DNA from: Candidatus Omnitrophota bacterium
GTDB lineage: Bacteria; Omnitrophota; Gorgyraeia; Gygaellales; Profunditerraquicolaceae
Assembly (NCBI GenBank): GCA_041650835.1
Contig: JBAZKL010000001.1
Coordinates: 171,931 to 235,930, forward strand
Reading direction: 5' to 3'
Length of the DNA stretch: 64,000 bases
In this document: one piece after another, positions 14,367 through 58,392 of the stretch
Position numbering within the stretch: the stretch's first letter is position 1
Layout: each line of letters opens with the position of its first letter
The notes under the pieces: generated by a model
Seen by the model: only the letters and a program-made list of their open reading frames with translations
Database searches by the model: none
Told to the model about the DNA's origin: nothing
Made by a program: the position numbers and the translations under genes

Positions 14367-15437
14367 CTACAATTTATTGCTGTTCTTCCGGAAAAAAGGG
14401 TCATCGGCGAATCTGTCCCCCGTCGTATTAAACGCAACCGCGCGGCAGCCGTAAAAATGGCTATGCTTACCCTGCGCTCCGTTATATATATAGCCCCGGA
14501 TCTTTCTCACCTTTGCCGAAGACATAATTTCACTGAGGCTACGGCGCCGGGCATCGCCAAGGGTTTCCGCGAGATAGCCGCACATCTGGACTTTCCCGTC
14601 GCTGCCGACACAACAGCCGGTCTTAACAACCGAACACCCGAGCGCGGCGATCGGATAGGTATGCTCAGGGTCCCAGGAAAACCCGAATTCCTCGTCGATA
14701 AACCGCAGACGGATAAAAAGATCACGCAGTTTTTCAGGAGAAACCCTCAAGCCGTTAAAATATCTCTCGTTTTGATTCCGCGGCGGGACAAGTACTTGGA
14801 AATAGGGAATGATATTTCTGCGCCGGAACTCACCCCACATCTGCGGGATTTCAGCGTAATTACTCCGGCAGATCACCGTGTGGATAGACAGCCGGGACGG
14901 CTTTTTGGTAAAACCCGCTTGTTCAAGACAGCGCAGCCCCCGCAAGATTTTCCCTGAAGATCCTTTTACGCCGGTAAGCGAATCCTGAATACGCGGATCA
15001 AAACTGTTTAATTTACAGACGATCGTCACGTCAAGGCCATAGAGCACCTCAGCGGCGCGCTCATCGATCAGCGTATTATTGGTAAACACAACCACATTCA
15101 ACCCCAGGGAATTGGCATCCCGGATAAGCGCATAAATATCTTTGCCGGTCCGGTCATCCCTGTACATAAAGGGCTCTCCTTCCCCGATGATCGACAGGGA
15201 ACGAAGCCCCATTTCCGCGGCTTGAGACATAATCCGCGCAAAGCGCCCATACCCCAGCGCGCTACGGCTCCTTTGGCTGTAACAATACCGGCACTTCAAA
15301 TTACAGCCTACCGGTAATTTCAGGCTTAAACTTAAAAGCCGGTTCTTATCAATAGCTTCGCTGATCTGGCGCGCGGAAAAACTGCGGCTCAGCCGCGGCG
15401 GAGCATGCAATCTCTTTTTGTTACGCTCAGCACACAT
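14367..15437 (-). CDS. Radical SAM/SPASM domain protein
   Basis: CNLKCRYCY, IIGEGEPFMY, C-terminal SPASM (CCVGSDGKVQMCGYL...LGDARRRSLSEIM...C). Confidence 0.8.
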   Translation of the reverse strand: MCAERNKKRLHAPPRLSRSFSARQISEAIDKNRLLSLSLKLPVGCNLKCRYCYSQRSRSALGYGRFARIMSQAAEMGLRSLSIIGEGEPFMYRDDRTGKDIYALIRDANSLGLNVVVFTNNTLIDERAAEVLYGLDVTIVCKLNSFDPRIQDSLTGVKGSSGKILRGLRCLEQAGFTKKPSRLSIHTVICRSNYAEIPQMWGEFRRRNIIPYFQVLVPPRNQNERYFNGLRVSPEKLRDLFIRLRFIDEEFGFSWDPEHTYPIAALGCSVVKTGCCVGSDGKVQMCGYLAETLGDARRRSLSEIMSSAKVRKIRGYIYNGAQGKHSHFYGCRAVAFNTTGDRFADDPFFRKNSNKL

Positions 15438-30519: not shown

Positions 30520-31572
30520 TTACTGTTTTAAGTTACGGTCTTCATTAATGGCGCGGATCAACTCAAAAAGCCGCCCGTAATCGCGCAGGTTAAACTTCAT
30601 CACCAGTCGGGGAAGATCAGGGTACTCTGACTTTTCAAGCTCTTCTTTCAAAGCAGAAGCTGCTGTGATCTCACCCTCGCTCAAGATATCCTTGAATTCG
30701 AGGTTGATCGCCCTTAAGGCCTCCCCGGAAAGCGGCCTGTTCAATCGTAACACCGTAAGGCCGGACACATAACGCAAAGAATGATATACTCTATAAAAGT
30801 TCTCTATATACTTAACCGCCTCATCGGCGCTACGGGCTACCTTGAAAAGATTAAGGTCATGTTTATTAATATAACCGTTCTTGATTAATTGCTCTTTTAC
30901 AAAACTGATCCAGCTTGCCCAATAGGTAGAGCCCTCAGGCTCCATGAGAACCACCGGGCGGGGGCGTGATTTACCGGTTTGGATCAGAGTGAGCGCTTCA
31001 AAGCCTTCATCATTGGTGCCGAAGCCTCCGGGAAAAAGCGTTGTGGCATCGGTTTCTTTGATAAAGATAAGCTTGCGGGTGAAGAAATATTTATAGTTGA
31101 TCAACCGTTCTTTTTCGTCAAGATAAGGATTCGGCTTTTGCTCAAAAGGAAGGCGGATATTCAAGGCGAAATCCTTTCCCGCGCCGGCCCCTTTATTACC
31201 CGCCTCCATGACCCCGGGCCCGCCGCCGGTTACCACCATATAGCCTTTTTTAGTGATCTTTCCCGCGAACTCTTCTGACATTTTATATTCTGCCGAATCC
31301 TTCCCCGACCTCGCAGAACCGAAGATGATCGCTTTTTTAACGTTTCTATAGGGAGCGAATATCTTGAAGGAATAACGTAATTCTTTCAGGCAATTATTTA
31401 TCAGCTTGAGGTCGCCGATATCATGAGACTCCATTCCCAGCTTAACACAGGTGGTAAGTATCTCCCGCATCAGAGATTCCGTGCCTGCGCAAGAACAAAG
31501 CTTAATAAGTTTACCGATTGCATCATCGGCGTCCTTATCGAAAACCTTATATTCCTTTGACATTTTTATCAT
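30520..31572 (-). CDS. LOG-family protein (PpnN/YgdH-like nucleotide 5'-monophosphate nucleosidase)
   Basis: IFGSARSGK...MVVTGGGPGVMEAGNKGA and FPGGFGTNDEGFEALTLIQTGK LOG motifs, plus long C-terminal extension as in PpnN. Confidence 0.75.
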   Translation of the reverse strand: MIKMSKEYKVFDKDADDAIGKLIKLCSCAGTESLMREILTTCVKLGMESHDIGDLKLINNCLKELRYSFKIFAPYRNVKKAIIFGSARSGKDSAEYKMSEEFAGKITKKGYMVVTGGGPGVMEAGNKGAGAGKDFALNIRLPFEQKPNPYLDEKERLINYKYFFTRKLIFIKETDATTLFPGGFGTNDEGFEALTLIQTGKSRPRPVVLMEPEGSTYWASWISFVKEQLIKNGYINKHDLNLFKVARSADEAVKYIENFYRVYHSLRYVSGLTVLRLNRPLSGEALRAINLEFKDILSEGEITAASALKEELEKSEYPDLPRLVMKFNLRDYGRLFELIRAINEDRNLKQ

Positions 31573-31598
31573 AGTATCCTCTAATATTTTAACTCCAT

Positions 31599-32126
31599 CT
31601 AAATCTTTTTCTTTTCAAACAAACTAAAGCACGCTATAAAGATCATGCTCAACACGATAATAACAATCCAATGATTCACGCCTAACCCGTCTGCCAGGGA
31701 TATTTTTCCCCAGTCCTTCCAGGTAAGCACTGTCTGCTTAAAGAAAGGGAATAACTCCGCGAATACGCCGGCTCCCGCGATCATCCCCATAATTGCCCAT
31801 ATCGCATGCCAACGTCCTTCCGCGACCGCGCCGACAGAAGTGCCGGGACAGAATCCCATGACCGACCAACCTAACCCAAAAAGCATCCCCCCGATTACCG
31901 TTGCCCCTAAATTCATTGTTTTATGCTTAAGCTCAATAACCCCAAGATCATTAAGCAAATAAATCCCCGCCATTCCGACAATGATCGCCGAAAGCATGAA
32001 CTTAAGGATTGTCATATCTTTAAGCAGCAACGCGCCGATTTGCTTTTCGAAGCGCAGCACACGTCCTTTTTGCAATAAGAAACCAAAGATTACGCCTGTT
32101 ATAAGACCAACCATCTGCTCGTTCAT
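31599..32126 (-). CDS. YeeE/YedE-family membrane protein (sulfur-compound transporter half)
   Basis: About 4 TM helices with GxxxGxxMGFCPG-like motif (MGFCPGTSVG), adjacent to its partner half. Confidence 0.6.
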   Translation of the reverse strand: MNEQMVGLITGVIFGFLLQKGRVLRFEKQIGALLLKDMTILKFMLSAIIVGMAGIYLLNDLGVIELKHKTMNLGATVIGGMLFGLGWSVMGFCPGTSVGAVAEGRWHAIWAIMGMIAGAGVFAELFPFFKQTVLTWKDWGKISLADGLGVNHWIVIIVLSMIFIACFSLFEKKKI

Positions 32127-32665
32127 GACCGGCCTCCTTTATATATAAATCGGCTCGCGACAATGCCTGTTAGAAAGAAGAAGATCACCGCCACCAATCC
32201 GCTCACTGATAACTGCATCATTCCGCTTAAACCATGGCCGCTCGGGCACCCATCCGCTAAACGAGCACCGATCATCGCGATAATACCCCCTACAAAAGCG
32301 CCTATAGCTCTTTTACTTACTGAAGGGCCAAAACGTTTTAGCCATATTGGCGGGACTGCCTCGGACTTAAAGCTTCGGTCGGCAACTGAAGAGATCAAAG
32401 CTCCCAGAAAGATCCCGGCCACCAGCATGAATTGCCAATCGATCTTAACCTTCTCTTTAGCGAAATATTCATTTTGAGCGACATGTTCCGGGGAAAAAAC
32501 CCTCTCAATCAATCCTGCCACCCTCACAAATGTAGTTGAAGCGCCCAGGTAATTCGGCTTGTTAATTAATTTGGTAGTCACCAACACCGAAGCCACCGCC
32601 AACAGGCCGACAAGCGCGCCTGCCAAGTACGGGTTCCAACCGCCATCCCCTGTTTTTATTTTCAT
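32123..32665 (-). CDS. YeeE/YedE-family membrane protein (partner half)
   Basis: TM protein with ADGCPSGHGLSGM motif, 4-nt overlap with the second half. Confidence 0.6.
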   Translation of the reverse strand: MKIKTGDGGWNPYLAGALVGLLAVASVLVTTKLINKPNYLGASTTFVRVAGLIERVFSPEHVAQNEYFAKEKVKIDWQFMLVAGIFLGALISSVADRSFKSEAVPPIWLKRFGPSVSKRAIGAFVGGIIAMIGARLADGCPSGHGLSGMMQLSVSGLVAVIFFFLTGIVASRFIYKGGRS

Positions 32666-32758
32666 GCTCCCCTCCTTTTTACCAGGCTTTCTTTTTTTAA
32701 ACCCTGAAATTATAAGACATTACGCTTAATTATAAACTGACTTGGAAAGAAATGACTG

Positions 32759-33961
32759 TCACCGCTTTTCACCCTCACCGAGCCCGGGAGGAGATTTCCT
32801 CCAAGGATATCCTTCTGAAGCTTCCTTAAAGCCCAGATCAAAGAGTGCCTGCATTTCAACGGGATCAAAAAATTCCTTTGCATTCGATACATGGGTTGCG
32901 GGGATATAAGCAAGATTAAAATCCCCCCTGCCGCCGTCTTTAGCAAATACATAGAGCTGGTAAAGATCCCCGATACTTTGAGCATTGATCATGGTATCGA
33001 CCGCGCGCTCGGCGATCGCGGAAAGCTTATCGCGGACTTCTTTATAAAACGGGTCAACATATCCGTTTCTTATCACATAGATCGTATATTTAGTCCGGGA
33101 GGCATCGCGCCCCTTCTCCTGGAAAGCCTTGTCAAACCCCTGTAAAACATCATAAAGAAAAAACACCTGCCTGGTTACTCCTCCGTCAACGTGCATCTCA
33201 TCATAGGTCTTATCATCAACTTCTACTTTTAAATAAACAGGAGGAAAAGCGATCGGCATTGAGGCGGATGCCAATATGATCTTACGGAACAATTTCAAGG
33301 CTAAATCATCTCCTAAAGAGGCGATCTTTCCCATATCCCAGACCACAAGCCGCTGCGCGTCCAGGTTAGTAGTTCCCACATAAAGCCGCCGGCCTTTGTT
33401 ATATTCTACAGCTATCTTTTTCAGCAATTCAGCGTCAAAATACCGCCCGATCAAACGCTCCAGCGGGCGCATATTCGCGAAGGAATTAGTAAAGGGGATA
33501 TGTATGCGCGCGATATGCTTCGTTGAATATTTAGTATAGAATTCCTTCAAAGTAGCATCGTATTTGCTTCCCAGGAAAGCGATCGGCGCGATGATCGCTC
33601 CCGTACTTATGCCGGTAACCACCTTAAATACCGGGCGCCTCCCGGACTGCGACCAGCCGTTAAGTAATCCGGCCCCATACGCTCCGTTAGCCGCGCCCCC
33701 GGAAACAGCAAGTACGTTATAAGTCCGGTCGTCATTAAAACTAACGCCGGAAGGGCTAACTTTCTCTTCCTGCGCGAATAACTTAATCAGGTCTTTTTTA
33801 AAATAATCGCTCGGGCTCCCGCTGAACGCCCTGATATCCCGCATACCGAAAACTCGCGCGTCGCTTAACAGCTCCGGAGGGACAGCATGCCTGAGACTAG
33901 CGCAACCGGAAAGAATAAACACAAAAACACTGAATGAGCAGATCCGCTTTACTATTTCCAC
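32759..33961 (-). CDS. Patatin-like phospholipase, lipoprotein
   Basis: Lipobox ILSGC. Oxyanion GGAANGAYGAG, GISTG (GxSxG) nucleophile elbow, DGG in the C-terminal half. Confidence 0.8.
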   Translation of the reverse strand: MEIVKRICSFSVFVFILSGCASLRHAVPPELLSDARVFGMRDIRAFSGSPSDYFKKDLIKLFAQEEKVSPSGVSFNDDRTYNVLAVSGGAANGAYGAGLLNGWSQSGRRPVFKVVTGISTGAIIAPIAFLGSKYDATLKEFYTKYSTKHIARIHIPFTNSFANMRPLERLIGRYFDAELLKKIAVEYNKGRRLYVGTTNLDAQRLVVWDMGKIASLGDDLALKLFRKIILASASMPIAFPPVYLKVEVDDKTYDEMHVDGGVTRQVFFLYDVLQGFDKAFQEKGRDASRTKYTIYVIRNGYVDPFYKEVRDKLSAIAERAVDTMINAQSIGDLYQLYVFAKDGGRGDFNLAYIPATHVSNAKEFFDPVEMQALFDLGFKEASEGYPWRKSPPGLGEGEKR

Positions 33962-34061
33962 TTGGAATTAACTCCTGAGGTTTTAGTTTTACCGCGACTG
34001 AACAAGATATACGTATAATTATATCATGACAAGAACAGCATGGCGCACATCAGCTTCAATT

Positions 34062-35150
34062 TCAACTCTTATGCCCTGAGGTGATGGCCTTAATTTGCTC
34101 TGTTCTTCGCGCTTTTTCTTTTGCGTCAAAAACATCTTTCATACCGTAGGCCTTTGTTCCTTTATGCCGGTTAAAGATATTAATAGTGAATTTATCGAAA
34201 TAGTGCAATATAGATATGGTTTTCTGAAAATCATCAGCTGTTTCTGTCGGAAAACAGTAAATTATGTCCGTTTCAATAAGTATCCCCGGGGAAAGCCTCC
34301 TTAATTCCTTTACCATCTTTTTGATATCTTCAACAGTGTATTTCCTGTTCATATCTTTGAGCACTTTGTTGCTGCCTGACTGGATAGCCAAGAATAAATA
34401 AATAATTTTTTTTGTTTTAAAGTACTTCCTCAACTCATCAAAATACTTAAGGAAATTGCCGGGCTCAAAACCGAAAACACTCAGGGTAAATTCTTTTTTT
34501 TCTTTGAATAGAGCGGCAAACAAATCAACGACGCTCATACCTATATCTTTACCATACAACGACACATCGGTCCCCAATATTGAGAAATTGCGGAACCCTT
34601 TCTTTATCCCGTTTCGGAACTCTTTTTTGACTATCGAGAAATCCCGGCTTTTCACGGCAGGAAAGATCTTATTTTTTATACAATACGAGCATTTATTATT
34701 ACACCCTAATGAAACCAGGATATTATATATTTTTTCCTTATTTGTTCCTTTTTCCGATCCAGGGCCAAAAACATTCGCGGAAATCTGTTCAAGGGGGACC
34801 TTGGGTTTAAAAAGATCGTCAAACAAACCCGCATTAAGCGGGCTATAGTAACTCGTAGTTTTGCTTAAAACAGACAGATTTTTCTCCAGGAAACATCCGG
34901 TTATGATGATCTTTTTATCCGGGTATTGCTTTTCATAAGACTTTATCACTTCCAAAGCTAAAACGATCTTTCTTTCGAAATTGCTGCATACAACAACAAT
35001 AATTATATCTGCCTCCGGAAGAGGCGTCATCTTTACCTGATTCCGCTTAAAATATCCAACTAATTGCGCAGCGAATAGATCAGTAAAAATACAGGTATTC
35101 TCTTTAATATGTATAAATACCTTCAATGGGTGTTTTTTTTCTGTTTTCAT
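34062..35150 (-). CDS. Radical SAM protein with B12-binding/MTTase-like N-terminal domain (no TRAM domain)
   Basis: CNNKCSYC; N-domain has three spaced Cys (NTCIF, VVVCSNFERK, IITGCFLE) as in MiaB/RimO-type N-domains. The gene is strongly AT-rich (~30% GC in sampled 60-mers versus ~50% in flanking genes). Confidence 0.55.
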   Translation of the reverse strand: MKTEKKHPLKVFIHIKENTCIFTDLFAAQLVGYFKRNQVKMTPLPEADIIIVVVCSNFERKIVLALEVIKSYEKQYPDKKIIITGCFLEKNLSVLSKTTSYYSPLNAGLFDDLFKPKVPLEQISANVFGPGSEKGTNKEKIYNILVSLGCNNKCSYCIKNKIFPAVKSRDFSIVKKEFRNGIKKGFRNFSILGTDVSLYGKDIGMSVVDLFAALFKEKKEFTLSVFGFEPGNFLKYFDELRKYFKTKKIIYLFLAIQSGSNKVLKDMNRKYTVEDIKKMVKELRRLSPGILIETDIIYCFPTETADDFQKTISILHYFDKFTINIFNRHKGTKAYGMKDVFDAKEKARRTEQIKAITSGHKS

Positions 35151-35242
35151 TTTATTCTATTTCCATGGAACACGCCAGCCGGTCGCGCGGGAATTTACTT
35201 AAATGCCTGTCCCCAAAAGTGACTGTCACCGTTCTTCCGTTC

Positions 35243-35869
35243 TTATTTTATCTCCAGAGACTTCACAAAAGCGGCATGAACATGCGACATACAGAAAGAA
35301 AGCGGCTCTTTTTTACCGTTACGCGTTATCGCGGCGTGCTTATAAAGGACTCCGGAAAACGAGACCGTATCCCCTGCTTTTATTTTCATTACGGTTGCTT
35401 TAACGCCGTCTACGGTCGGCAATATGCCAATACCAAACTTGGTGACGTTCAAATATTGGAAATCCCTGCTTGTCTGATTGACCCTCGCCCAGGCTTTTTT
35501 ATCCCGCGCGTTGAACTCAGGTACGCCCGCGCTTAATTCCCTGATCGCGCGTAACGCTCTTTTATCGTTCGCGGGAACGATATTAATAGTCCTCACAAAC
35601 GCATCTTCAGGAGCTGGTTTGTGCTCCGAAGTAAAGCTCAAAGAATCGGTATCAACGACCACGTACCGTTTCTTGTTCAGGACCGCTTTCCTCTTAAGGG
35701 TATAGGTATAAGCGCCGCGGCTGACTTTTAAGGTCCTTTTATACGCCTTGAGCGTAAATATCGACGGTATATCATCAAGTTTGATGATCTCACCCGATGG
35801 GCTCTGACAGCCGGAAACCCCCAGAGAAAAAACAATTATTGCTGCTATAATCGTTATCTGCCGCGCCAT
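35243..35869 (-). CDS. Hypothetical lipoprotein
   Basis: Signal peptide plus lipobox VSGC; no recognisable domains. Confidence 0.5.
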   Translation of the reverse strand: MARQITIIAAIIVFSLGVSGCQSPSGEIIKLDDIPSIFTLKAYKRTLKVSRGAYTYTLKRKAVLNKKRYVVVDTDSLSFTSEHKPAPEDAFVRTINIVPANDKRALRAIRELSAGVPEFNARDKKAWARVNQTSRDFQYLNVTKFGIGILPTVDGVKATVMKIKAGDTVSFSGVLYKHAAITRNGKKEPLSFCMSHVHAAFVKSLEIK

Positions 35870-35966
35870 AACTCTCCGATAAAGAACACATCTAATTAAT
35901 TAACATGATAGTATATATAATTATATCACGGTAAGAAAAGTATGGAACAACTCTTTACGAAGGTTG

Positions 35967-36010
35967 GATTCCCGCTTATAGCTAATGAAGAGAACGGGAA
36001 TGACAAAAAA
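35967..36010. repeat. Repeat R1 copy a (upstream of lipoprotein gene 35243..35869)
   Basis: GGATTCCCGCTTATAGCTAATGAAGAGAACGGGAATGACAAAA, ~88% identical to 36829..36872. Followed by a second shared block AAGTCAAAAGG after a ~70-nt insertion. Confidence 0.6.
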
Positions 36011-36186
36011 AAGAATGGTAATGAAGAATAGCAGGAACGATACCCTTTCATGCCATCCCCGCGAAAACGGGGGTGACATGAAAAGTCAAAAGGAAAAATT
36101 TAACCCCAATAACACGAGAGGTCACTTATACGCTTTCTTTAAGCCTGCGATTGGGGTGATTTTCTGCATATCTATCCCTTCTTTCA

Positions 36187-36717
36187 TTATGAGCCGCCTG
36201 AATTTTTCATCTTGGAGAAGAAATTTTTGGCTTCCTCATCTATCTGCTGAGCGGTGAGATCCCGCGTATGAGTAGCGACCGACCAGGTATGTCCAAAGGG
36301 GTCCCGTAACTGCCCGACCCTATCCCCCCAAAACATCTCCTGCACCGGCATGATCTGGGTAGCGCCGGCCTTGAGCGCCCGGCTGAAAACTTCATCGGCA
36401 TTTTCTACATAGAGGTAAAAACTGGCGGTGTTCCCTTTCAATATAGACGGAGAAACGGAACAATTTTGCTCATGACCGGGATGAGGGTCACAATCATCGG
36501 CCAACATAAAGATAGAATCCCCGATCTTCAGTTCCGCGTGCATAAGCTTACCTCCCGGCTTATCCATGCGGCTTAATTCCTGGGCGGCAAAAGCGCTCTT
36601 GTAGAATCTTATCGCCTGCGCGCCGCCGCTGACCACCAGATGAGGTGTAAGTGTATGATACCCTTCAGGTATTGGTTTTAAATCTTGAGCCATATTTTCC
36701 TCCTTTGTTAAGACCAA
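36187..36717 (-). CDS. VOC-family protein (glyoxalase/bleomycin resistance/PhnB-like)
   Basis: Two betaalphabetabetabeta modules; HAELKIGDSIFMLAD and later H/E metal ligands typical of PhnB-like VOC proteins. Confidence 0.7.
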   Translation of the reverse strand: MVLTKEENMAQDLKPIPEGYHTLTPHLVVSGGAQAIRFYKSAFAAQELSRMDKPGGKLMHAELKIGDSIFMLADDCDPHPGHEQNCSVSPSILKGNTASFYLYVENADEVFSRALKAGATQIMPVQEMFWGDRVGQLRDPFGHTWSVATHTRDLTAQQIDEEAKNFFSKMKNSGGS

Positions 36718-36828
36718 TAGGTCCCTTGCCCTCTTTACTTATTTATATCACTATTAAGAACATTAACAATTGGCTATTTCCACGGATTATTGACTTTTTT
36801 CCACTCCAACGGGATTACGTCAAGGATT

Positions 36829-36872
36829 TGATCCCCGCTTATAGATCATTAAGAGACCGGGAATGACAAAAC
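36829..36872. repeat. Repeat R1 copy b (upstream of VOC gene 36187..36717)
   Basis: TGATCCCCGCTTATAGATCATTAAGAGACCGGGAATGACAAAA. Confidence 0.6.
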
Positions 36873-36914
36873 AAGTCAAAAGCCAAAAGGAAAAAGACCG
36901 CCTGCTTTGACTTG

Positions 36915-36996: not shown

Positions 36997-37800
36997 TTAT
37001 TTTATTCCTAAGATCTGGATTTCTCCGCCTTCAGTTTTAGAAAAATCAATTTCTTTGACCAGTGGAGCGCCTCCGCCAAAATCAAAGCTCAAAAAGAGGG
37101 TATATTTACCCTGGGGCATTTTGGGAGGGATCTCCGTCTTAAAAACAGCCTTTTCTCCTGAAGGAAGATAAACCCCCTGCAGCGTTCCTCTACTTAAAAC
37201 AACGCCTTTTTCATCAATTACATGGAAAGTCGGATTAGAAACCAGCAAAACATTACCGATGTTGGTAATATTTCCTTGAATAGCGCCCTTAACAAAAGAC
37301 GCGCCATCTATTGTCGCTTTCTTTATTTTATCGCCTGTCTCTAAAAATAATGTATAGCCCCAACTTATGGCTAAACTCACACTGGCTTTATCATCGACCT
37401 GACCTGAGGCGGTTTTCTCGAAATAAATCGTCCCGTAATAACTCCCCTTTACTGCCTCCGGCACATTTATAATGTAGTCCACTGCCAGCTTGCCAAACGC
37501 GGGGATATTGAACGACTCAGGCGAAACCTTGATCCACGTGTTGATAGAATAAGGAGTCGACCCTGCGGGTAGAATTTCTTTTTTTCCGTCAAATGGCCGG
37601 ACAAACTTGATATCTTTCAAATATGTCTTCAAAAAGAGGATTTTGTCGGAAGTGTTTCTAAGAGTAATTGTCCCTTTAACAGCCTGCCCAGGCGCAATAT
37701 CCACTCTCTCACTGTATTTATCCAAAGCTAACTGCGCGAACGCAGGACAATTCCAACTTGCCGATAAGACTAATGCTAAAGAAATGATATATTTCTTCAT
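36997..37800 (-). CDS. Secreted hypothetical protein, two Ig-like repeats (possible periplasmic pilus-chaperone-like fold)
   Basis: Signal peptide MKKYIISLALVLSASWNCPAFA. Two internally similar beta-rich halves (…GTITLRNTS… / …GNITNIGNV…). Confidence 0.4.
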   Translation of the reverse strand: MKKYIISLALVLSASWNCPAFAQLALDKYSERVDIAPGQAVKGTITLRNTSDKILFLKTYLKDIKFVRPFDGKKEILPAGSTPYSINTWIKVSPESFNIPAFGKLAVDYIINVPEAVKGSYYGTIYFEKTASGQVDDKASVSLAISWGYTLFLETGDKIKKATIDGASFVKGAIQGNITNIGNVLLVSNPTFHVIDEKGVVLSRGTLQGVYLPSGEKAVFKTEIPPKMPQGKYTLFLSFDFGGGAPLVKEIDFSKTEGGEIQILGIK

Positions 37801-37883
37801 TAAGATTTTCTCCTGTTTTCCCGTTAATTTGCCTCAAATAATAAAGGAGGCAGGATCTTTTCTGCCTCCCTTATCAAAATATT

Positions 37884-38525
37884 CTAACCTATTCTTATTG
37901 TTAACGTCCCGGAATAAGTCCCCGCGGGAGTATTGTAGCTGAAAATATGCTTAGCGGCTTCAACGGGGTCGGTAAACCCAAAGAGAGCCGGGTCGGTGAT
38001 AATGCCCACATATATCCTCACCCAATGCCCATCATAAGACGCCTCTGAATTTACAGCGCCCGGGGTGCCGGCATTTATTAATTGCGTGGCAAAAGTCTCT
38101 TCAGTACTTTCGGTCGCGCTTTTCCAAGTCATTAACTTATAGGTAGCCCCGACTCTATCTCCCAACCCCAATGACCCATGATCAGACCACTCTACAGCTA
38201 TTCCCGGGAAAACAGGCTTACCTCCCCCGCTGATCCCGATATCGACAGCGTAGTACCTATTATCTCTCGGCGCGAAAACACCTAATTTTTTGCCGCTTAT
38301 GTCCGATATTTCCGCCAACTCACCGAAAGTCATTGTATTTACTTGTCCTATTGTGGTCCAGTCGTCAGGGCCGCTTGGCGATACATATAGAATACCTGTA
38401 ATCGTCGCCCCATACGAACCCGTCGGAATTGTCGCTGAGACTTCGACCGTTTGTCCGAATACCCGGGGATAAATACCTAAACCTATGCCTGCCAAAGCCA
38501 GTAATATTACAAAAACTTTTTTCAT
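37884..38525 (-). CDS. Secreted hypothetical protein
   Basis: Start set to MKKVFVILLALAGIGL, preceded by AAGGAGGG; beta-rich, Gly/Thr-rich. Confidence 0.45.
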   Translation of the reverse strand: MKKVFVILLALAGIGLGIYPRVFGQTVEVSATIPTGSYGATITGILYVSPSGPDDWTTIGQVNTMTFGELAEISDISGKKLGVFAPRDNRYYAVDIGISGGGKPVFPGIAVEWSDHGSLGLGDRVGATYKLMTWKSATESTEETFATQLINAGTPGAVNSEASYDGHWVRIYVGIITDPALFGFTDPVEAAKHIFSYNTPAGTYSGTLTIRIG

Positions 38526-38729
38526 TTTGCCCTCCTTAATTTTAACCGGTACTTTATAAATATGCTGAATTTGAAACATCCTTTCTCCGTTTTTTCGCTA
38601 AAACCCAGTTCCTCGGGAACCGATATAACTATATGATATCATATTTTATTACAAAAAAACTATATTTGTCTATTACCTGACACCTTTATTTATTGACTTT
38701 CTTCCACCTAATAGGGACCGGCCTATTAA

Positions 38730-39551
38730 TTACCCCTTTCTTCCTGAAAACAACGACAGCCCTGCGGATATGATCAACGCCAAACCAAAACAGGTAACCA
38801 CAGAGGCTCCGGTAGGTAAATCGCATTTGGCTGAAAAAAACAAACCAAAAACGCTTACTAAAAATCCTATTATCCAACCCAGAACGAGCCTTTTGAATAT
38901 ACCCTTTGTTAAAAGCATCGCGCAGGTTGCGGGAACAACAAGGTAGCTAAAAACTAAAAGCACACCGGCAATCTTTACTGAACTGGTAACTACAAAACCA
39001 AAGGTGATATAAAAAAGGAAGTCCCAAAGCACGACTTTAACCCCTTGCCTTCTGGCCTCCCCTGCATCTTGTGATATAAGAAAGAATCTCCGGCGAAAGA
39101 CAAAATGAAAAACCCCCACAGCTGAATAAATCAGCAGGATCTTTATAACCTCATGCCAATTGACATAGAGTATACTTCCCACGAGCATAGCCTGCAGCGC
39201 TTCATGGCCATGGGGCGCGCGGTCTAAAATCAAGATCGCCGCTGCGGAAAAAACCGCATAGGCTATTCCAATGATCGCCTCCTGCGGAACAACTTTTTCA
39301 CGGAAACGGCCTAAAGCAAATATCCCCGCCCCAACAAAGGTAAAAAACAGAGAAAAAATATAAGCCTGAATACTGGCAAGCTCATATCCAAAGTACAAGG
39401 CTAAAGTAGCTCCAAAGGCAGCGATCTGAGCCAAAGCTAGATCAACGAATATCACTCCCCTGGTGACGATATGCAGCCCTAAATAACAATGTATTCCTGT
39501 AAGGATTAAGCAGACTGCGAACGGCGCAGCCATCAAAATTAACATTTCCAT
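38730..39551 (-). CDS. Metal ABC transporter permease (ZnuB/MntB/TroC-like, ABC-3 family)
   Basis: 273 aa, 8-9 TM helices, directly downstream of the ZnuA-like gene. Confidence 0.7.
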   Translation of the reverse strand: MEMLILMAAPFAVCLILTGIHCYLGLHIVTRGVIFVDLALAQIAAFGATLALYFGYELASIQAYIFSLFFTFVGAGIFALGRFREKVVPQEAIIGIAYAVFSAAAILILDRAPHGHEALQAMLVGSILYVNWHEVIKILLIYSAVGVFHFVFRRRFFLISQDAGEARRQGVKVVLWDFLFYITFGFVVTSSVKIAGVLLVFSYLVVPATCAMLLTKGIFKRLVLGWIIGFLVSVFGLFFSAKCDLPTGASVVTCFGLALIISAGLSLFSGRKG

Positions 39552-39569
39552 GATTTCCGCTCTCCTCTT

Positions 39570-40484
39570 TTATGGGCGAAGGCCTTGCACAAGATTATCT
39601 ATGATTGTATCCATAAGGCTGAAATAATCTTGCGCCTCTTTTGTGCCGCCGACAGAATTCGGCACTACTGCTACTTTAACGCCTGCCCGCTCCGCAACAA
39701 ACCGCGCCGGCTTCTCATCGTAAAAAACCTCCATCAGGATCACCTTAACATTCTGCTGCTTAATGGTCTCAATAATCTTTCTCAAATGTTCCGGTGAAGG
39801 CGGTATACCCGGCTTAGGCTCAAGCTCACAGGCAATTTCCAGGCCGAACCTGTTAAAGAAATACGGCCAGCTACGGTGATAAATAGCGATCTTCTCTCCT
39901 TCAAACGGCGCCATTTTTGTCTTCCACCCAATCAGTTTCTCATCTATTTTATGGTTGAAATCAGAAAGGTTCTTATTAAAATATGCTTCATCTTCCGGAC
40001 GAAGCTCACCCAGGCGCTCCGCGATATTAAAAGCTATTATTTTAACGTTCAAGGGGTCAAGCCAATAATGCGGATTCCCCATAGGATGCACATCGCCCAT
40101 TGAACGGTCTATCTTGGTTGTCGTGGGGACTTCCAATAAAAGCGCTCCTTCTGATACATCAAGATGCCCAAGCTCACCGATCCTTATCTTTTGATTTCGG
40201 GAGCCGTCAATGATCGGTTCTTCATAGCCGATCTCCAGCTCTAAGCCGACACGGACAAAAAGATCGGCTTTCTTTGCCTTTATCATAAAAGACGGCTTTG
40301 CTTCCACGAAATGCGGGTCCTGGCAACCCATTGCCAGACTATCTACCTTGACTTTGTCTGCGCCGATAAATTCAGCTACAGATTTAAGATCAGCGGTTGT
40401 TGTAAGTATATTGATCTTGTCTTGAGCGAAGGAATACGAAGCTGACCCCGCCAATAAAACTAAAATAAAGAATATCTTTTTCAT
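39570..40484 (-). CDS. Metal ABC transporter substrate-binding protein (ZnuA/TroA-like)
   Basis: Signal peptide, metal-binding His residues, NPHYWLDP motif characteristic of TroA-family binding proteins. Confidence 0.75.
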   Translation of the reverse strand: MKKIFFILVLLAGSASYSFAQDKINILTTTADLKSVAEFIGADKVKVDSLAMGCQDPHFVEAKPSFMIKAKKADLFVRVGLELEIGYEEPIIDGSRNQKIRIGELGHLDVSEGALLLEVPTTTKIDRSMGDVHPMGNPHYWLDPLNVKIIAFNIAERLGELRPEDEAYFNKNLSDFNHKIDEKLIGWKTKMAPFEGEKIAIYHRSWPYFFNRFGLEIACELEPKPGIPPSPEHLRKIIETIKQQNVKVILMEVFYDEKPARFVAERAGVKVAVVPNSVGGTKEAQDYFSLMDTIIDNLVQGLRP

Positions 40485-40502
40485 TTTATTTCCTCCCAAG
40501 AA

Positions 40503-41771
40503 TTAATATTCGTGTTTTCTATGCGGCCCTAAACCAAAATTACATTGCAGCCAGACCTCATTGCTATCCTTACCATAATCCCGGTCCGTATGCTTAAATT
40601 GCAATCGCCAGAAACAATATTCACTCTGTGCGAAAGTAAATCCTCCTGAGAAAGCATTATCGCGCCTATCAGAATAATCCGGGAATTCCGAAAGATCATA
40701 TCTGCCGAAAACCGAACAGCGTTTTGCAAATTGATATTGCAATGAAGAATACATGCCCCAGGAATCAATTTGTTTCGGGCCTGAGCCTTCTTCAGCGATC
40801 ACGTTATCTTTTTGGCTGAAGAATGCCTCATTTTGGAAAACAAGAGACCTGTATAAACCTTCTTTTAAAGGTTTCCATTTATAGGTAAGGTCTATTCCTT
40901 CAAGAGTGGTCCTGTTTTTTCCATGGCCGTCATCATTAGGCCCCGTTGCTAAACTCCCTCCCAGCTCCAAGGTTGATACGTCATTGATATCAAAAAAACT
41001 TTTTAAGTGTGACACATAAACCATATTTCTGCCCTGGTTTCCGGCGAAACTGGCAGCATTGCGGTTATTCATAGCCTCCAATGAAAATTCCATATACTTA
41101 TCCCATGGATTAGGGATCAAGTAGTTTACTGAAACTCCCGGAAGGCTCATTCCCTCTTCACCAAAATAGTTGGCGAGGACATTGGGATAATCGACCCAGG
41201 GAAGTGAATGCAGGTGAAGCCTGTTTATCTTGCCGAAATTAGCTTTAAACTTTCCTATTTTGCCCTGTAGATCCTCAACAGGCAGATTGAGCAACGTCAA
41301 ATATCCTTCGCATAGTCCCACATGCCATTCTTCGCCTTCCGGCTCAACATGCAAAAATAGATCCGCCCTCGAGTAAGGGTCAACCGGGGCAGAAAAAGCC
41401 AATTCCGCCTGGCGCATCTTAAACTGGTCATATTGCTCATCGTCTTTTTTATCCGTACCATGATACGTAAGATCACCGATAACGCTTATATCGGGATTAA
41501 AGCTTTGAAAATACCTCCCTACTCTTGACTGCGAAGGCGGGACAACCTGAGCCGCATTGCCAGAAGCCGGCGTATTCTGCGGCAAGACCTGTTCAACTTT
41601 AGACTCAAGCTGATCGATCTTTCTTTTATAACGAGCCCTCATTTCTTCAAACTGTGATTTCAACAACTTTATCTCTTCTTTTAGATCATCCACTTCTCGA
41701 GGATCTGTTTCCGCGTATAAACAGGTAACCGCAAAAAACATGATCATAAAAAACACTAATATTCTTTTCAT
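40503..41771 (-). CDS. Putative outer-membrane beta-barrel (porin-like) with N-terminal coiled coil
   Basis: Signal peptide, ~40-aa coiled coil (DLKEEIKLLKSQFEEMRARYKRKIDQLESKVEQV), then alternating amphipathic beta-strand pattern rich in aromatics. Immediately upstream of znuA-like gene (3-nt gap). Confidence 0.4.
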   Translation of the reverse strand: MKRILVFFMIMFFAVTCLYAETDPREVDDLKEEIKLLKSQFEEMRARYKRKIDQLESKVEQVLPQNTPASGNAAQVVPPSQSRVGRYFQSFNPDISVIGDLTYHGTDKKDDEQYDQFKMRQAELAFSAPVDPYSRADLFLHVEPEGEEWHVGLCEGYLTLLNLPVEDLQGKIGKFKANFGKINRLHLHSLPWVDYPNVLANYFGEEGMSLPGVSVNYLIPNPWDKYMEFSLEAMNNRNAASFAGNQGRNMVYVSHLKSFFDINDVSTLELGGSLATGPNDDGHGKNRTTLEGIDLTYKWKPLKEGLYRSLVFQNEAFFSQKDNVIAEEGSGPKQIDSWGMYSSLQYQFAKRCSVFGRYDLSEFPDYSDRRDNAFSGGFTFAQSEYCFWRLQFKHTDRDYGKDSNEVWLQCNFGLGPHRKHEY

Positions 41772-43034: not shown

Positions 43035-43442
43035 TTACTTCTTGAATAGATAATCCGCTATCGCGCGATAAAGCGCGCTGACTGAAAGTATCGAACAGTG
43101 CAGATGATCATCGGGTAAACCCTTAAGTTTCTTGATCACTTCTCCCGCGGAAATAGAAAGCGCCTCTTTTACGGTTTTACCCCCTGCCAGCTTCGCCGCC
43201 ATGGCCGCGCAGGCCCTTGTAGCATGGCAACCTTCGGTATAATATTTAATTTCGGCGATCAAGTCATTTTCGATCACCAGATAAAACTCCATCGCGTCCC
43301 CGCATGGCCCCTTTACATGCGAAAAGCCCACCGGATCATTCATCCTTCCAAAATATCTTTGATTATTAATAAGGTCGATTACCTCCTGCGGATATTCAGC
43401 AAGCCCTTCCTGCCTGTTATTCATCATCGCAATCCCTCCCAA
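43035..43442 (-). CDS. NifU/IscU-like Fe-S cluster scaffold protein
   Basis: GPCGDAMEF..., YTEGCHATRAC..., HCSILSVSALYRAIADY match the three conserved Cys regions of IscU/NifU N-domain. Confidence 0.7.
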   Translation of the reverse strand: MGGIAMMNNRQEGLAEYPQEVIDLINNQRYFGRMNDPVGFSHVKGPCGDAMEFYLVIENDLIAEIKYYTEGCHATRACAAMAAKLAGGKTVKEALSISAGEVIKKLKGLPDDHLHCSILSVSALYRAIADYLFKK

Positions 43443-44272
43443 ATATTTTTCACTTCATCTGCCGCCGCACACGCCGCGTATTCGACAATGGTCTTACCTT
43501 CTACAAGCGCCTCCACGACCGTCTTATCAAAGGGAATCCTGCCTATGACCGGAATGCCTATCTCCCGGCAAAACGCCTCAATTTTTTCTGTGACGGCCGT
43601 ATTCAGGTCGTATTTATTCACTACCAGCTTGACCGGGATATTAAAATGCCTGGCTACATCCATAACGCGCCCGGCATCATGCAGGCCGGACAGTGTCGGC
43701 TCAGTCACGATTAAAGCGCAATCAACGCCCGACAGCGACGCGATAACCGGGCACCCTATACCAGGAGGGCCGTCAATGATCACGTATTCGAAACACTTCT
43801 TTTCCGACAATTCTTTGGCGATCTGCCTGATCTTCGCCACAAGCTTGCCGGAATTCTCCTCGGCTATCCCCAATTTAGCATGAACAAACGGGCCGTAACG
43901 AGTATCGGAAATAAACCACTCACCTGCCACGTTCTCTTCCATCCGGATGGCCCCATACGGACACACATGGCTGCAGAGAGCGCACCCTTCGCAGGAAAAA
44001 CGCTCAACCGCAAAATCATCACGTATAGCCCCAAATCTGCATACAAAGATGCATTTACCGCATTTCTTACAAAGTTCCTTATCAATAACCGCGGCTTGCC
44101 CGCTTCTAAACTCATGGCGTTCTTTTACCGTAGGATGCAACAAAAGATGCAGGTCCGCCGCGTCCACGTCGCAGTCAACCATGACTTTATTTTTAGCCAA
44201 AGCGGCAAGCGCCCCCGCAACCACAGTCTTGCCTGTGCCGCCTTTTCCGCTAATGACGACTATTTGCTTCAT
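43424..44272 (-). CDS. MinD/ParA-superfamily P-loop ATPase with 2x[4Fe-4S] ferredoxin insert
   Basis: Deviant Walker A SGKGGTGKT; CKKCGKCIFVC and CEGCALCSHVCPYGA ferredoxin motifs. Confidence 0.75.
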   Translation of the reverse strand: MKQIVVISGKGGTGKTVVAGALAALAKNKVMVDCDVDAADLHLLLHPTVKERHEFRSGQAAVIDKELCKKCGKCIFVCRFGAIRDDFAVERFSCEGCALCSHVCPYGAIRMEENVAGEWFISDTRYGPFVHAKLGIAEENSGKLVAKIRQIAKELSEKKCFEYVIIDGPPGIGCPVIASLSGVDCALIVTEPTLSGLHDAGRVMDVARHFNIPVKLVVNKYDLNTAVTEKIEAFCREIGIPVIGRIPFDKTVVEALVEGKTIVEYAACAAADEVKNIWEGLR

Positions 44273-45119
44273 TCTTTATTCCACGAATATTGATATATAA
44301 ATTAATAAATTTATCCTGATAAGAAGCGTTCTTTTCCACGATAGGTATACCCTCAGAACAACTTACTGCTATTTCTCTGCTAAAAGGGAGCTTCATTAAA
44401 ATAGGGATACGCTCTGCCCTGCAATAATCCTCCACCTTGCCGTCTCCGATATCAGAGCGATTAACAACCACACCAAATGATATCTGTAATTTTCGTAATA
44501 CCTCTACAGCCAAAATCAGATCATTTAAACCGAATGGCGTTGGCTCTGTCACTAATACGCAGTAGTCGCTCCCCTTAACTGCCGTGATAACCGGACACGA
44601 AGTCCCGGGAGGAGCGTCAATAATCACCGTCCTTGTAGGATTTACATAACTTTTCACCTGCCGGATCAAAGGCGGAGACATTGCCTCCCCTATATTAAGG
44701 CGGCCATGAATAAACTGCATATTGCCTTTCGATCCGATCTCTATTGTTCCGATCTCTTTATTAACTTCTTTTATTGCCCCTTGAGGACAAAGCAAACTAC
44801 ACGCCCCGCATCCATGACAGAGATGCGGAAAGATCAAAACACTCCCCTTGTGAGCGTTATTACCCGGTAGCACTGCGATAGCATGGTACGCGCATACCTG
44901 CCGGCACTTACCGCAATACGTGCACTTGTCCTCATCATCCTCCGGCACCGGAATAAACGCCTTCACTTCATCATTTATGCGTGGCTTAATAAACAAGTGC
45001 GCGTTCGGCTCCTCTACGTCGCAATCAAGAAGCTGGATATTCTTAAGCGACAAGGCCAAATTAACCGCGATCGTCGTTTTTCCTGTCCCGCCTTTTCCGC
45101 TGGCGATTGAAATGATCAT
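44250..45119 (-). CDS. MinD/ParA-superfamily P-loop ATPase with 2x[4Fe-4S] ferredoxin insert (paralog)
   Basis: ASGKGGTGKTT; CTYCGKCRQVC and CHGCGACSLLCPQGA. Confidence 0.75.
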   Translation of the reverse strand: MIISIASGKGGTGKTTIAVNLALSLKNIQLLDCDVEEPNAHLFIKPRINDEVKAFIPVPEDDEDKCTYCGKCRQVCAYHAIAVLPGNNAHKGSVLIFPHLCHGCGACSLLCPQGAIKEVNKEIGTIEIGSKGNMQFIHGRLNIGEAMSPPLIRQVKSYVNPTRTVIIDAPPGTSCPVITAVKGSDYCVLVTEPTPFGLNDLILAVEVLRKLQISFGVVVNRSDIGDGKVEDYCRAERIPILMKLPFSREIAVSCSEGIPIVEKNASYQDKFINLYINIRGIKNEANSRH

Positions 45120-47525: not shown

Positions 47526-50500
47526 TCATCCGATCTTCACTTCCACTGAATGCTCTACCCGATCATCAATGAGCTGTACCGCCATTTCCTTCTGCGCGAC
47601 ACCATCCACCTCAATAGACGTCAAACGGCCTGACGGTCCCAAACACACAAATGTAATGTGATAAAAAGTCTCCCTGTATCGGTAATGCAGCTTCCAAGAA
47701 GTCCAGCCCGCGGGAAGACACGGCTCGAAATAGATCCTGTCCACTTTCAACCGAATCCCCAGTAAATACTTCACGATAAGCTGATACATCCAACCGGCGG
47801 ATCCGGTGTACCATGTCCATCCACCGCGTCCGGTGAGGCCGGCAGAGGCATACACATCCGCCGCCATCACGAACGGCTCCACCTTGTAAACAGCGCACTT
47901 ATCCGCAGTATCGCAATGACGCACCGGGTTGATCATATCGAACAACTCCCAGGCCCGTTTTTTATCACCCAATACCGCGAACGCGATCGCCGCCCAGATC
48001 GCAGCATGCGTGTACTGTCCCCCGTTCTCCCTCACTCCGGGGACATAGCCTTTGATGTATCCCGGGTTAGGAAAAGCCTTATCAAAAGGAGGATCGAACA
48101 ATCTCACGAGCGCGTGCTTCCTGTCGACAAGCTGCCGGTCCACCTGCTCCATGGCCTTTCGGGCTCTGTCCCCCTGAGCCGCGCCCGAAAGAACCGCCCA
48201 GGATTGCGGGATCGAATCGATCCGGCATTCGCTGTTCAAGGAAGAACCCAAAGGTTCCCCATTGTCAAAATAGGCCCGGCGATACCATTGCCCGTCCCAG
48301 CCATACTTTTCAATATTCTTGGAAAGCTTCTCTGACTCCTCAACACAGAATTCCGAAAAAACCTTATCCTCACGCTGAGCTGCCAGGGCCGCCATCGACT
48401 TAAGGACATCGAAAAGAAAAAAAGCAAGCCAAACGCTTTCGCCTTTTCCTTCGCGCCCGACCAGATTCATCCCGTCATTCCAGTCACCGCTTCCCATAAG
48501 AGGAAGGCCATGAACGCCGAACTGCAAACCTCTTTTCACGCTTAAAACACAATGTTCATAAAGTGTCCCGGTACGAGCGGAGATTCTCGGCATATCGTAG
48601 TAAGATTCTTCTCCCTGCTTGACCAGGGGCCCTTCCAGGAACCCAGCAATTTCATCAAGGATCCCTGTATCCCCGATATTTTCGACATACAGGCAGGTCA
48701 CCAACGGAAGCCATAAATAATCATCCGAACACAGACTACGGACCCCCCGGCCGGAAGGCGGATGCCACCAGTGCTGCACATCTCCCTCCACAAACTGGCG
48801 CGCGGCAAAGCTCAGCAATTGTTCCCGGACCATTTCCGGCTTCGAATGGAGGAGCGCCATCACATCCTGGAGCTGGTCCCGGAAGCCGAAAGCCCCGCCG
48901 GATTGATAAAAACCGCTTCGGCCCATGAGGCGTGAGCTTATGAGCTGATATTGCAGCCATCCGTTGACGAGAAAATTGATCGAGGCATCGGAGGTTTCCA
49001 CATACACAACGCCCAGGGTACGTTTCCAGTATTCCCACACCCTTTCAAGCTCCTGACGTGCCGCCTCGACACCGCCAAAACGCCGGACGAGGTCCCGCGC
49101 CTCGTCCATCGTTCTCCCGGATCCAAAAGTAAAAACTATCTCTTTCTGCTGACCATCCTCTATTTCAAACTTCACCTGCGTGGCAACGCACGGATCAATC
49201 CCCGCGCCCACTTTTCCGGAAAGCCTATCCCTTCGCATCACGGAAGGCGATCGCATAGTGCCGTTCCTTCCGATAAATTCGATCCGGTCCCCGGTCACGA
49301 ATCGCGCCGGTTCGCTCACATCCAAAAAAACAGCGCGGGCAGGGAATTCCTTGTTATAAGGATTACGGGCGAACAGGGCGCCGCTTTTAGGGTCGACCTC
49401 GGTAAGGATATGCATGTGGTATTTATCCCGAGAAGGCCCCATGACCAGCTCATAGTACGACGTCACGGACAGGCGCCTGCGGCGGCCGGAAATATTCCTG
49501 ATCTTCAGGGCAGAGAATTTGACTCGGTCCTCCAGGGAAACGAATACCGTTAACTCCGAAACAATCCCGTTTTCGACATGCTCAAAAACGCTGTACCCGA
49601 ATCCATGGCGCGAGGTGTAACCGGCCTCGCCCCGAGCGGGTAGCGGGGTCGGTGACCAAAATCTCCCGCTCTCCTCATCGCGAATATAGAGCGCCTCTCC
49701 CGAAGCGTCCGTAACAGGATCGTTCTTCCAAGGCGTTAAACGAAATTCATGCGCGTTCTCGCTCCAGGTAAAAGCGCTGCCGCTTTCGGAAACCACCGTG
49801 CCGAAATGCCGGTTCGCCAACACATTTACCCACGGAGCGGGAGTGGTCTTCGAGCGCGAGGTCATGATCACATATTCCCGACCATCCCCGGTAAACCCTC
49901 CCAAGCCATTAAAGTAAACCAGATGAGAGCGCTCTGCGGGATCCCGGGGCTCTTCTTCCGGATCATCTTTCCTGGTGGGAACAAATGGAAGAAAATGCGC
50001 CTTGGGCTGTGTCATATCCGTCAACTGCTCCGTCAGCGTACCCCCGCGGTCAGAAATAATGATCCGCGCGGCCGTTTGCATGAGGATCCGGTCCTCATCC
50101 GACATCTGATCGGCGCGCCTTAAAAAAATACCTCCGTTACGGCCGGCTTGTTCCTTGGTATTGGCAACGATCAACCCGCTGATCCTCTCACCCAGACTAT
50201 CACGATAAATAGAACTATCTTCATTCCATATAAGAAGATCGACCGCCAGTCCTTTCATCTGCCAATAGGCATGGGCTTGCACCATCTGCACGACGAGATC
50301 GATATTGTCCTGATTTTCGATGCGGACGAGGACGATCGGGAGGTCCCCCGAAATACTGTATCCCCAAAGATCGGGCTGGCCCCGGTTATTCCGCCGCAAA
50401 ATACTCGCGCTCGCCCGCCAGGCGGGATTGGCGTACACAATAGCGCTGGTCAGACGGCCGTAGAGCTGAGCGGCCGCCTCCGTCGCATTGATCTGTTGCA

Positions 50501-57591: not shown

Positions 57592-57752
57592 AGGAGCCTC
57601 CCCATCACGCTCATTCTGCCTTCACGAGAACCCTTCTTGATTCCGAGCTAAACCTAAAAACCCAACTACTCAGGCGGCCGATCAAGCGATCAGACGCCAG
57701 AGTGCCTTGCCAGTAGGTGCGCCCGCATCATTCATTTCCTGATTTACGCCCT

Positions 57753-58214: not shown

Positions 58215-58392
58215 ACTTCCACCTCTTATTAATTAGAGTAATTTTATTAAAAATCTCCGCGCTCGGCAATGGGCTAATTCCTTTCTTCAGACTCACACAC
58301 CATTTCTGCGCTGCCTTGACCACTTTGGATTTTAATATGCGGTTCTTGTTCCGGTGGCGGTGTTGGAGTAGCGCACCCCATTGTTCTCTTAC

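Follow-up and report, generated by a model that had tools for sequence, protein, structure and literature searches.

A methylthiotransferase-like radical SAM gene without a TRAM domain in a variable locus of an Omnitrophota genome

We describe an AT-rich gene for a radical S-adenosylmethionine (SAM) enzyme in a stretch of 64,000 nucleotides (nt), hereafter the window, of contig JBAZKL010000001.1 from a metagenome-assembled genome (MAG) of Candidatus Omnitrophota. The reading that we favour, and that we hold with about even confidence, is that this is a functional, lineage-specific accessory gene, gained laterally in a rearrangement-prone locus before its host and a sister population split, and that its product is of the methylthiotransferase (MTTase) type, probably acting on a substrate other than tRNA. 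The gene is under purifying selection, and its AT-richness mainly reflects a protein rich in Lys, Ile, Phe and Asn, not codon choice. The host is an uncultured relative of Ca. Velamenicoccus within the Omnitrophota.

34062..35150, minus strand: radical SAM gene, an intact open reading frame (ORF) of 362 amino acids (aa), TRAM-less and MTTase-like; NCBI MFA5117396.1, 'radical SAM protein' of a Candidatus Omnitrophota MAG.

With 36.4% guanine plus cytosine (GC) against 48.6% for the window, the gene has the lowest GC among the 50 window ORFs of at least 150 aa that our ORF scans covered (z -3.5). It is also the lowest of all 1089-nt segments of the 64-kb stretch, 0.06% of which are as low or lower, and it ranks first of the 50 ORFs for low GC at each codon position (GC1, z -4.0; GC2; GC3, z -2.3). 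The initial annotation, made from the sequence alone, had called the gene a compositional outlier, and in this it was right. The size of the contrast that it gave, 27-33% against about 50% GC, was overstated: 60-mers within the gene have 25-47% GC (mean 36%), and the flanking genes 47-48%. When two change points are fitted, the low-GC block spans 33910-35169 (36.2% vs 45.6% GC, log-likelihood ratio 18.7): the radical SAM ORF together with the AT-rich promoter of the gene that follows and the start of its signal peptide. The borders proposed earlier were those of the ORF with about 100 nt of flanks; the 100 nt downstream have 37% GC, and the 92-nt spacer upstream has 49%. The gene deviates from host composition as a horizontally acquired gene would, mostly through its amino acids.

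FYMINK residues (Phe, Tyr, Met, Ile, Asn and Lys) make up 42% of the protein, the window mean being 28% (z +4.2); Lys accounts for 14%, Ile for 9%, Phe for 8% and Asn for 5%. When codons were re-drawn for the protein's own amino acids from the window codon table, a GC3 of 0.51 was expected, versus the 0.41 observed (z -3.9). This synonymous shift ranks only fourth among the 50 ORFs and is common to the genes at 189, 36997, 37884, 38730, 40503 and 56653. By arithmetic on the per-gene figures, amino-acid composition explains about 70% of the GC deficit of 12 points, and codon choice about 30%. Homologues in other hosts show host-typical values (gene vs host, 32.7 vs 34.6, 28.9 vs 28.9 and 70.0 vs 70.4% GC), and thus the family is not intrinsically AT-rich. 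Codon usage of the gene is best fitted by Omnitrophota loci of 41-43% GC (L031, L011, L008 and L004), the best table being that of Ca. Velamenicoccus archaeovorus LiM. The table of its own window fits less well, and those of 29-35% and ~70% GC backgrounds far worse. As the silent sites resemble 41-43% GC Omnitrophota, either the donor was an Omnitrophota-like genome or the gene has long resided in the phylum.

The assignment of the product to the MTTase type rests on its domains, its predicted fold and two sets of cysteines:

34680..34703, minus strand: CNNKCSYC, the CxxxCxxC cluster motif (C150, C154 and C157), read in the sequence; its alignment columns are invariant.
34891..35093, minus strand: codons of C20, C55 and C86, the positions of the MTTase auxiliary [4Fe-4S] cluster; their alignment columns are conserved.

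An alignment of 61 sequences shows no variation at C55, C86, C150, C154 and C157 and at least 90% conservation at C20, so both triads, that of the auxiliary cluster and that of the radical SAM cluster, are intact. Pfam recognises Radical_SAM (PF04055, 6e-22) and, weakly, UPF0004 (PF00919, 23 bits vs a cutoff of 27). The generic MiaB/RimO model of NCBIfam, TIGR00089, scores 181.3 bits (cutoff 251) and aligns over model positions 19-360 of 429. The equivalog models give 143 bits for MtaB (cutoff 357), 134 for MiaB (355), 120 for RimO (357) and 163 for e-MtaB (TIGR01578, 315), and the protein is thus under every NCBIfam family and equivalog cutoff. An AlphaFold2 model (pLDDT 89.6), with a terminal helix at residues 343-359, matches MtaB best, followed by MiaB and RimO (TM scores 0.72-0.79); B12-type enzymes are far behind (0.55-0.59). 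There is no match to the TRAM families PF01938 or PF18693, and the TIGR00089 alignment ends at model position 360 of 429, with no TRAM part. Nor is there a split-off TRAM ORF, since the stop codon lies only 100 nt from the next gene. Sequence, Pfam/NCBIfam, alignment and model agree in bearing out the CNNKCSYC motif, the MTTase-like N-terminal domain and the missing TRAM of the initial annotation. Its combined label, B12/MTTase-like, holds in the second half (TIGR00089, 181 bits) and finds no support in the first. PF02310, the B12-binding family, gives no match at E <= 1 in the protein, and TIGR04013/04014 align weakly (57-60 bits) over the radical SAM core residues 139-316 only. We therefore rejected a B12-type radical SAM enzyme, given the lack of PF02310 and the presence of the MTTase cysteine triad.

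The protein can be compared with two groups of known enzymes. It shares the UPF0004-type cysteine triad and the CxxxCxxC motif with the MiaB/RimO-family MTTases (MiaB, MtaB, e-MtaB/CDKAL1 and RimO; 7MJV, 4JC0, model 9A6D); it is 21-22% identical to the solved members and differs from the family in ending at model position 360 of 429, without a C-terminal TRAM. Housekeeping MTTases are widespread, unlike the window gene, which is restricted to two sister genomes. B12-binding radical SAM methyltransferases (MgmA/QCMT 9CCB, TsrM, OxsB; TIGR04013/04014) likewise combine a flavodoxin-like N-terminal domain with a radical SAM barrel, but their models score far lower than TIGR00089 and the window protein carries the MTTase triad. 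Characterised MTTases all have three domains, and no substrates other than tRNA A37 and ribosomal protein S12 are known for them (PMC10702137).

A search of about 15 billion proteins gave a single close homologue, P0002 (87% aa identity), the next best being 34-38% identical. P0002 was the only close homologue in the word-indexed search and also when 1.84 billion representatives were searched exhaustively with HMMER, and a scan of metagenome contigs for further orthologues yielded one relative, at 28% identity. This confirms a narrow phyletic distribution. Beyond P0002, the protein belongs to a TRAM-less clade of 248 representative clusters at E <= 1e-30. All 30 relatives scoring 150-200 bits end less than 35 aa past the aligned core, without a TRAM-sized C-terminus; lower-scoring relatives mostly bear such a tail, and several relatives are fused to extra radical SAM, B12 or SPASM domains. 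The highest-scoring relatives stem from contigs of 43%, 70% and 74% GC.

The nearest relatives with known context, P0003 (L002), P0139 (L038) and P0140 (L039), are uncharacterised. Like the window protein they and two further L039 paralogues are two-domain proteins, with 35-38% end-to-end identity to it; P0139 has the same length, 362 aa. Their genes are found within clusters that contain 4-8 radical SAM genes, often with Peptidase_U32, glycosyltransferase or HxsD genes; the radical SAM genes are sometimes fused to another radical SAM domain. L039 holds three tandem paralogues of the TRAM-less enzyme, and Peptidase_U32 is present in two of the clusters, L002 and L039. These two clusters (L039 8001-16771 and L002 6484-21269) have 70-74% GC and 6-8 radical SAM genes in addition to Peptidase_U32, and that of L002 also has HxsD and asparagine-synthase-like genes. 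P0005 (L034), TRAM-less, likewise from a radical-SAM-rich cluster, 29% identical and longer than the window protein (426 aa), and P0013 are encoded amid glycosyltransferase or flippase genes. Most TRAM-less relatives are basic like the window protein (pI 9.56, net charge +24), the close P0141 and P0142 being acidic (pI 5.7-5.9). High pI is uninformative as evidence of RNA binding, the window median being 9.0 and most relatives being basic irrespective of GC.

According to its fold and ligands, the enzyme would have the two-domain MTTase architecture minus TRAM. SAM cleavage at the radical SAM cluster (C150/C154/C157) would yield a 5'-deoxyadenosyl radical, which would take a hydrogen from the substrate, and the auxiliary N-terminal [4Fe-4S] cluster (C20/C55/C86) would carry the inserted sulfur or methylthio group. 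Because TRAM is missing and the nearest clade is found in clusters packed with radical SAM genes, we think that the substrate is probably not tRNA and may be a biosynthetic intermediate of a glycan, lipid or peptide.

The history of the gene can be read from its neighbours, between which it lies:

35243..35869, minus strand: upstream neighbour, a lipoprotein gene (208 aa predicted, no Pfam family; ratio of nonsynonymous to synonymous divergence, dN/dS, 0.33).
32759..33961, minus strand: downstream neighbour and synteny anchor, a patatin-like phospholipase gene with a lipoprotein signal (Pfam Patatin 1e-21), with orthologues in 26 Omnitrophota loci.

P0002, identical in length and stop position to the window protein, is encoded on an 11.9-kb metagenome contig (L001), likewise between a lipoprotein and a patatin gene, and at 37.0% GC it shows the same dip (L001 neighbours, 44-49%). 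The closest homologue is thus an orthologue from a sister contig, equally low in GC. Nucleotide identity between the window and L001 is 90.7% for the radical SAM gene and 87-91% for its neighbours, and the synonymous divergence (dS) is 0.27 and 0.23-0.45, respectively. As both measures match those of the neighbours, the gene predates the window/L001 split, and the 'recent' in the initial annotation's recent acquisition is not sustained. The dN/dS of the gene is 0.22, against 0.07-0.13 for the patatin, LDcluster4 and glyoxalase genes. The lipoprotein neighbour, which evolves equally fast, has a normal composition (FYMINK 0.31).

A patatin-protein scan of species-representative genomes gave 26 Omnitrophota loci, of which the 25 with usable sequence were inspected over +-10 kb. 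No radical SAM homologue was present within 10 kb of patatin in these 25 loci (L004, a close relative, among them), 18 of which have at least 3.8 kb of upstream sequence; the gene occurs only in the window and L001. Several GenBank MAG contigs (among L005, L010, L011, L019, L022 and L025) bear the title 'uncultured Planctomycetales bacterium', and their patatin is 60-85% identical to that of Omnitrophota; from the sequences, these labels are probably wrong. A defence system was also considered for the locus and rejected: PADLOC gave a weak generic match only (PDC-M51A, 25 bits), and the patatin, conserved throughout the phylum, bears a lipoprotein signal.

Gene order is not the same in the window, in L001 and in L004, the third of these close relatives. 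The window reads promoter-lipoprotein-radical SAM-promoter-patatin-two sulfur-transport genes-LDcluster4, and L004 promoter-patatin-ankyrin gene-promoter-lipoprotein-LDcluster4. The genes filling the gaps are two Sulf_transp genes in the window, the ankyrin gene in L004, and a 420-aa gene and a TPR gene in L001. Such rearrangement between close relatives is in line with the acquisition reading of the initial annotation. The dS between window and L004 is 0.29 for the lipoprotein gene and 0.46 for LDcluster4, as close as L001, whereas patatin is at 0.75, versus 0.33 between window and L001; in the lipoprotein and LDcluster4 genes, the two most similar of the three are L001 and L004. Because the per-gene dS values of the three disagree (30520-36717), the genomes are mosaic.

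The intergenic sequences of the locus are built from recurring elements:

35151..35242, minus strand: 92-nt spacer from lipoprotein to radical SAM gene, holding module M1 (35195-35230) and then ~8 nt like the start of the M2 hairpin.
34014..34043, minus strand: extended -10 promoter (TGATATAAT) of the patatin gene, an arm of the 30-nt direct repeat D3.
35916..35954, minus strand: second promoter copy, upstream of the 208-aa lipoprotein gene (repeat arm 35916-35945).

The spacer contains no strong promoter, terminator or stable fold (z +0.3), and the lipoprotein promoter copy probably drives the radical SAM gene too. M1 in the spacer matches over 36 of 36 nt, and blastn synteny with L004 stops at 35192, just after it. 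The modules M1, M2 and M3 follow most genes of the locus in the three relatives and occur practically nowhere else among the loci compared. The initial annotation had stated that no repeat marks the acquisition, which needs some correction: the 30-nt direct repeat (34014-34043 / 35916-35945; two window matches vs 0 expected) flanks the lipoprotein and radical SAM genes, and a 139-nt repeat brackets the radical SAM gene in L001. The 30-nt repeat was rejected as an insertion scar because it is a conserved extended -10 promoter, which in each of the three genomes precedes both the patatin gene and the lipoprotein gene. The 139-nt direct repeat of L001 (5576-5718 and 6958-7097; copies 91% identical) is a composite of M modules with three predicted hairpins (z -3.1), and pieces of it recur behind other L001 genes (4684-4710, 9803-9831 and 10746-10766). 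These repeats, and the end of the synteny with L004 just after M1, fit recombination at elements resembling repetitive extragenic palindromes (REP-like), short of proof. An Rfam scan of the borders of the radical SAM gene gave no match.

Other repeats lie nearby. A 48-nt intergenic direct repeat (35964-36011 / 36827-36874, 85% identical) and a 36-nt one (36063-36098 / 36853-36888, 75% identical) contain a TTCCCG...CGGGAATGACA hairpin, lie upstream of the lipoprotein and glyoxalase genes and look REP-like. A 20/21-nt match between the sequence around the start codon of a gene for sulfur transport (32645-32665, MKIKTGD) and the interior of the lipoprotein gene (35369-35389, MKIKAGD) could be due to chance or be a recombination trace.

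The gene is, as first noted, the sixth radical SAM gene of the window and lies outside the glycan island at 189-23616 (0.2-23.6 kb), within which are the other five (189-2225, 7520-8506, 8519-9577, 9574-10695 and 14367-15437). A recent paralogue of these five was rejected, the best BLASTP E-value being 0.001. Unlike its relatives, the window copy is solitary, ~10 kb from this radical-SAM-rich island. Two of the island genes, 8519-9577 and 9574-10695, are tandem paralogues (40% identical); the island is of polysaccharide type and also holds 3-4 family 2 glycosyltransferase (GT2) genes, two PMT_2-like genes and genes for a flippase, a DegT aminotransferase, a thiamine pyrophosphate (TPP) enzyme and a sulfatase. 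At 47526-56315 (minus strand), a 2929-aa ORF with supersandwich and catalytic domains of glycoside hydrolase family 94 (GH94) and a glucoamylase-like domain looks like a cyclic beta-1,2-glucan synthase/phosphorylase. Codon usage across the window is bimodal: GC3 is 0.55-0.63 in the island and this giant GH94 gene (189-23616, 47526-56315) and 0.42-0.47 at 36997-41771 and 56653-59745, the latter set resembling related Omnitrophota (41-45% GC). It may be the island, with its higher GC, that is of foreign composition. Elsewhere in the window, two neighbouring MinD/ParA-type P-loop NTPase genes with inserted 4Fe-4S ferredoxin domains (43424-45119, minus strand) adjoin genes for a SAM methyltransferase and a regulator of the Fur family.

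Four other explanations were weighed for the origin and the role of the gene. A recent acquisition, as in the initial annotation, with a distant and very AT-rich donor, for instance DPANN archaea or candidate phyla radiation (CPR) bacteria of the same habitat, is one that we consider unlikely. It agrees with the GC of the gene, 12 points under the window, with relatives of 27-34% identity in archaeal and CPR-like low-GC contigs, and with a residue usage (FYMINK 0.42; GARP, that is Gly, Ala, Arg and Pro, 0.16) matching that of homologues from 29-35% GC contigs (FYMINK 0.43 in P0013, 0.40 in P0012). The weak Shine-Dalgarno sequence of the gene would also agree, but as a marker of foreignness it is uninformative, many window genes being equally weak. 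Such backgrounds, however, show a GC3 of 0.19-0.31 instead of 0.41, Omnitrophota loci give a much better codon-usage likelihood than loci of 29-35% GC, the top-scoring relatives are on 43%, 70% and 74% GC contigs, and the composition was the same before the window/L001 split (dS 0.27); the claim of a distant low-GC donor is not borne out by these observations. It is rather unlikely, to a slightly lesser degree, that the gene is native and vertically inherited, with a composition due to relaxed constraint and AT-biased mutation and a patchiness due to loss or relocation. Omnitrophota-like codon usage, the same locus with a dS close to that of the neighbours in two genomes, a dN/dS two to three times that of the housekeeping neighbours and the lack of mobility genes would all suit such a history. 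Against it stand the absence of a homologue beside patatin in the loci of 25 other species, the lack of any homologue above 38% identity in the databases searched apart from P0002, the normal composition of the equally fast lipoprotein neighbour and the host-matching GC of family members elsewhere.

As to function, a minimal TRAM-less tRNA MTTase (or one acting on rRNA or a ribosomal protein), that is, a divergent e-MtaB/MtaB, seems doubtful to us. TIGR01578, of the archaeal/eukaryotic ms2t6A type, is its best subfamily-specific NCBIfam model (163 bits), MtaB its best fold match, and the protein is basic; some TRAM-less relatives adjoin tRNA synthetase, TGT or RtcB genes, and substrate recognition by MTTases is held to involve all three domains and not TRAM alone (PMC10702137). 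Nevertheless, the equivalog scores of 120-163 bits compare with cutoffs of 315-357, a housekeeping tRNA modifier is unlikely to be confined to two sister genomes, and the closest clade is cluster-associated with tandem paralogues. A decaying, truncated canonical MTTase on its way to a pseudogene is highly improbable and already largely refuted: the missing TRAM, the AT-richness and a dN/dS above that of the neighbours are what it would leave, but that dN/dS is well under 1, the orthologue P0002 has the same length and stop position, all six cluster cysteines are retained, the fold is predicted with confidence and the TRAM-less architecture is the rule in the clade.

We return to lateral gain of an MTTase-type accessory gene into a flexible locus, which is a plausible reading and the most economical one. 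Entry would most likely have occurred before the two sister populations diverged, into a locus organised as promoter-gene-REP-like units, and the gene would then have been kept under purifying selection. Several points weigh against it. Loss in other lineages is possible, the other genomes having been inspected only +-10 kb around patatin, and the compositional background is 64 kb of genome only. No donor was found, and no phage or plasmid relative (best tblastn identities below 30%, on which a phage or plasmid origin was rejected). The window has no tRNA gene and, as the initial annotation had observed for integrases, no integrase, transposase or insertion sequence (IS) element among the 50 ORFs scanned; both copies of the 139-nt repeat are absent from it. 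On the functional side, the gene has neither a partner radical SAM gene nor an evident substrate gene beside it. A Rosetta-stone search with the N- and C-terminal parts of P0137, P0138 and P0140 and with the partner radical SAM proteins of L002 found no specific window counterpart, so the fused partner domains of the relatives have none in the window. Some TRAM-less relatives of 27-34% identity are in archaeal or CPR-like housekeeping or tRNA-synthetase neighbourhoods, and a protein this basic (pI 9.6) makes an RNA substrate possible.

Atypical composition, patchy distribution and a variable locus are features that the window gene has in common with genomic islands and ameliorated horizontally acquired genes in the Lawrence-Ochman framework. 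The window case differs from these in affecting a single gene, without integrase, tRNA or IS element, and in having host-like silent sites while its first and second codon positions are aberrant. For the interpretation of genomes it is a caution: even a striking GC dip can stem mainly from amino-acid composition, and alone it proves neither recent transfer nor a donor. On a small scale, the locus also illustrates the flux of accessory genes among Omnitrophota populations that are very close to one another.

In summary, the radical SAM gene is modestly interesting, as a pointer to an uncharacterised clade and not as a surprise in itself. It is tempting to go further and propose, as a tentative possibility well short of an even chance, that this large TRAM-less MTTase-like clade sulfurates or methylthiolates non-RNA, non-ribosomal substrates, candidates being intermediates of the glycan, lipid or peptide products of radical-SAM-rich clusters, and that the Omnitrophota copy is a single cassette caught between REP-like hairpins that, as recombination sites, shuffle promoter-gene units. 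That the clade members nearest to this gene are encoded in radical-SAM-rich clusters points to substrates of a class so far unexplored in radical sulfur insertion.

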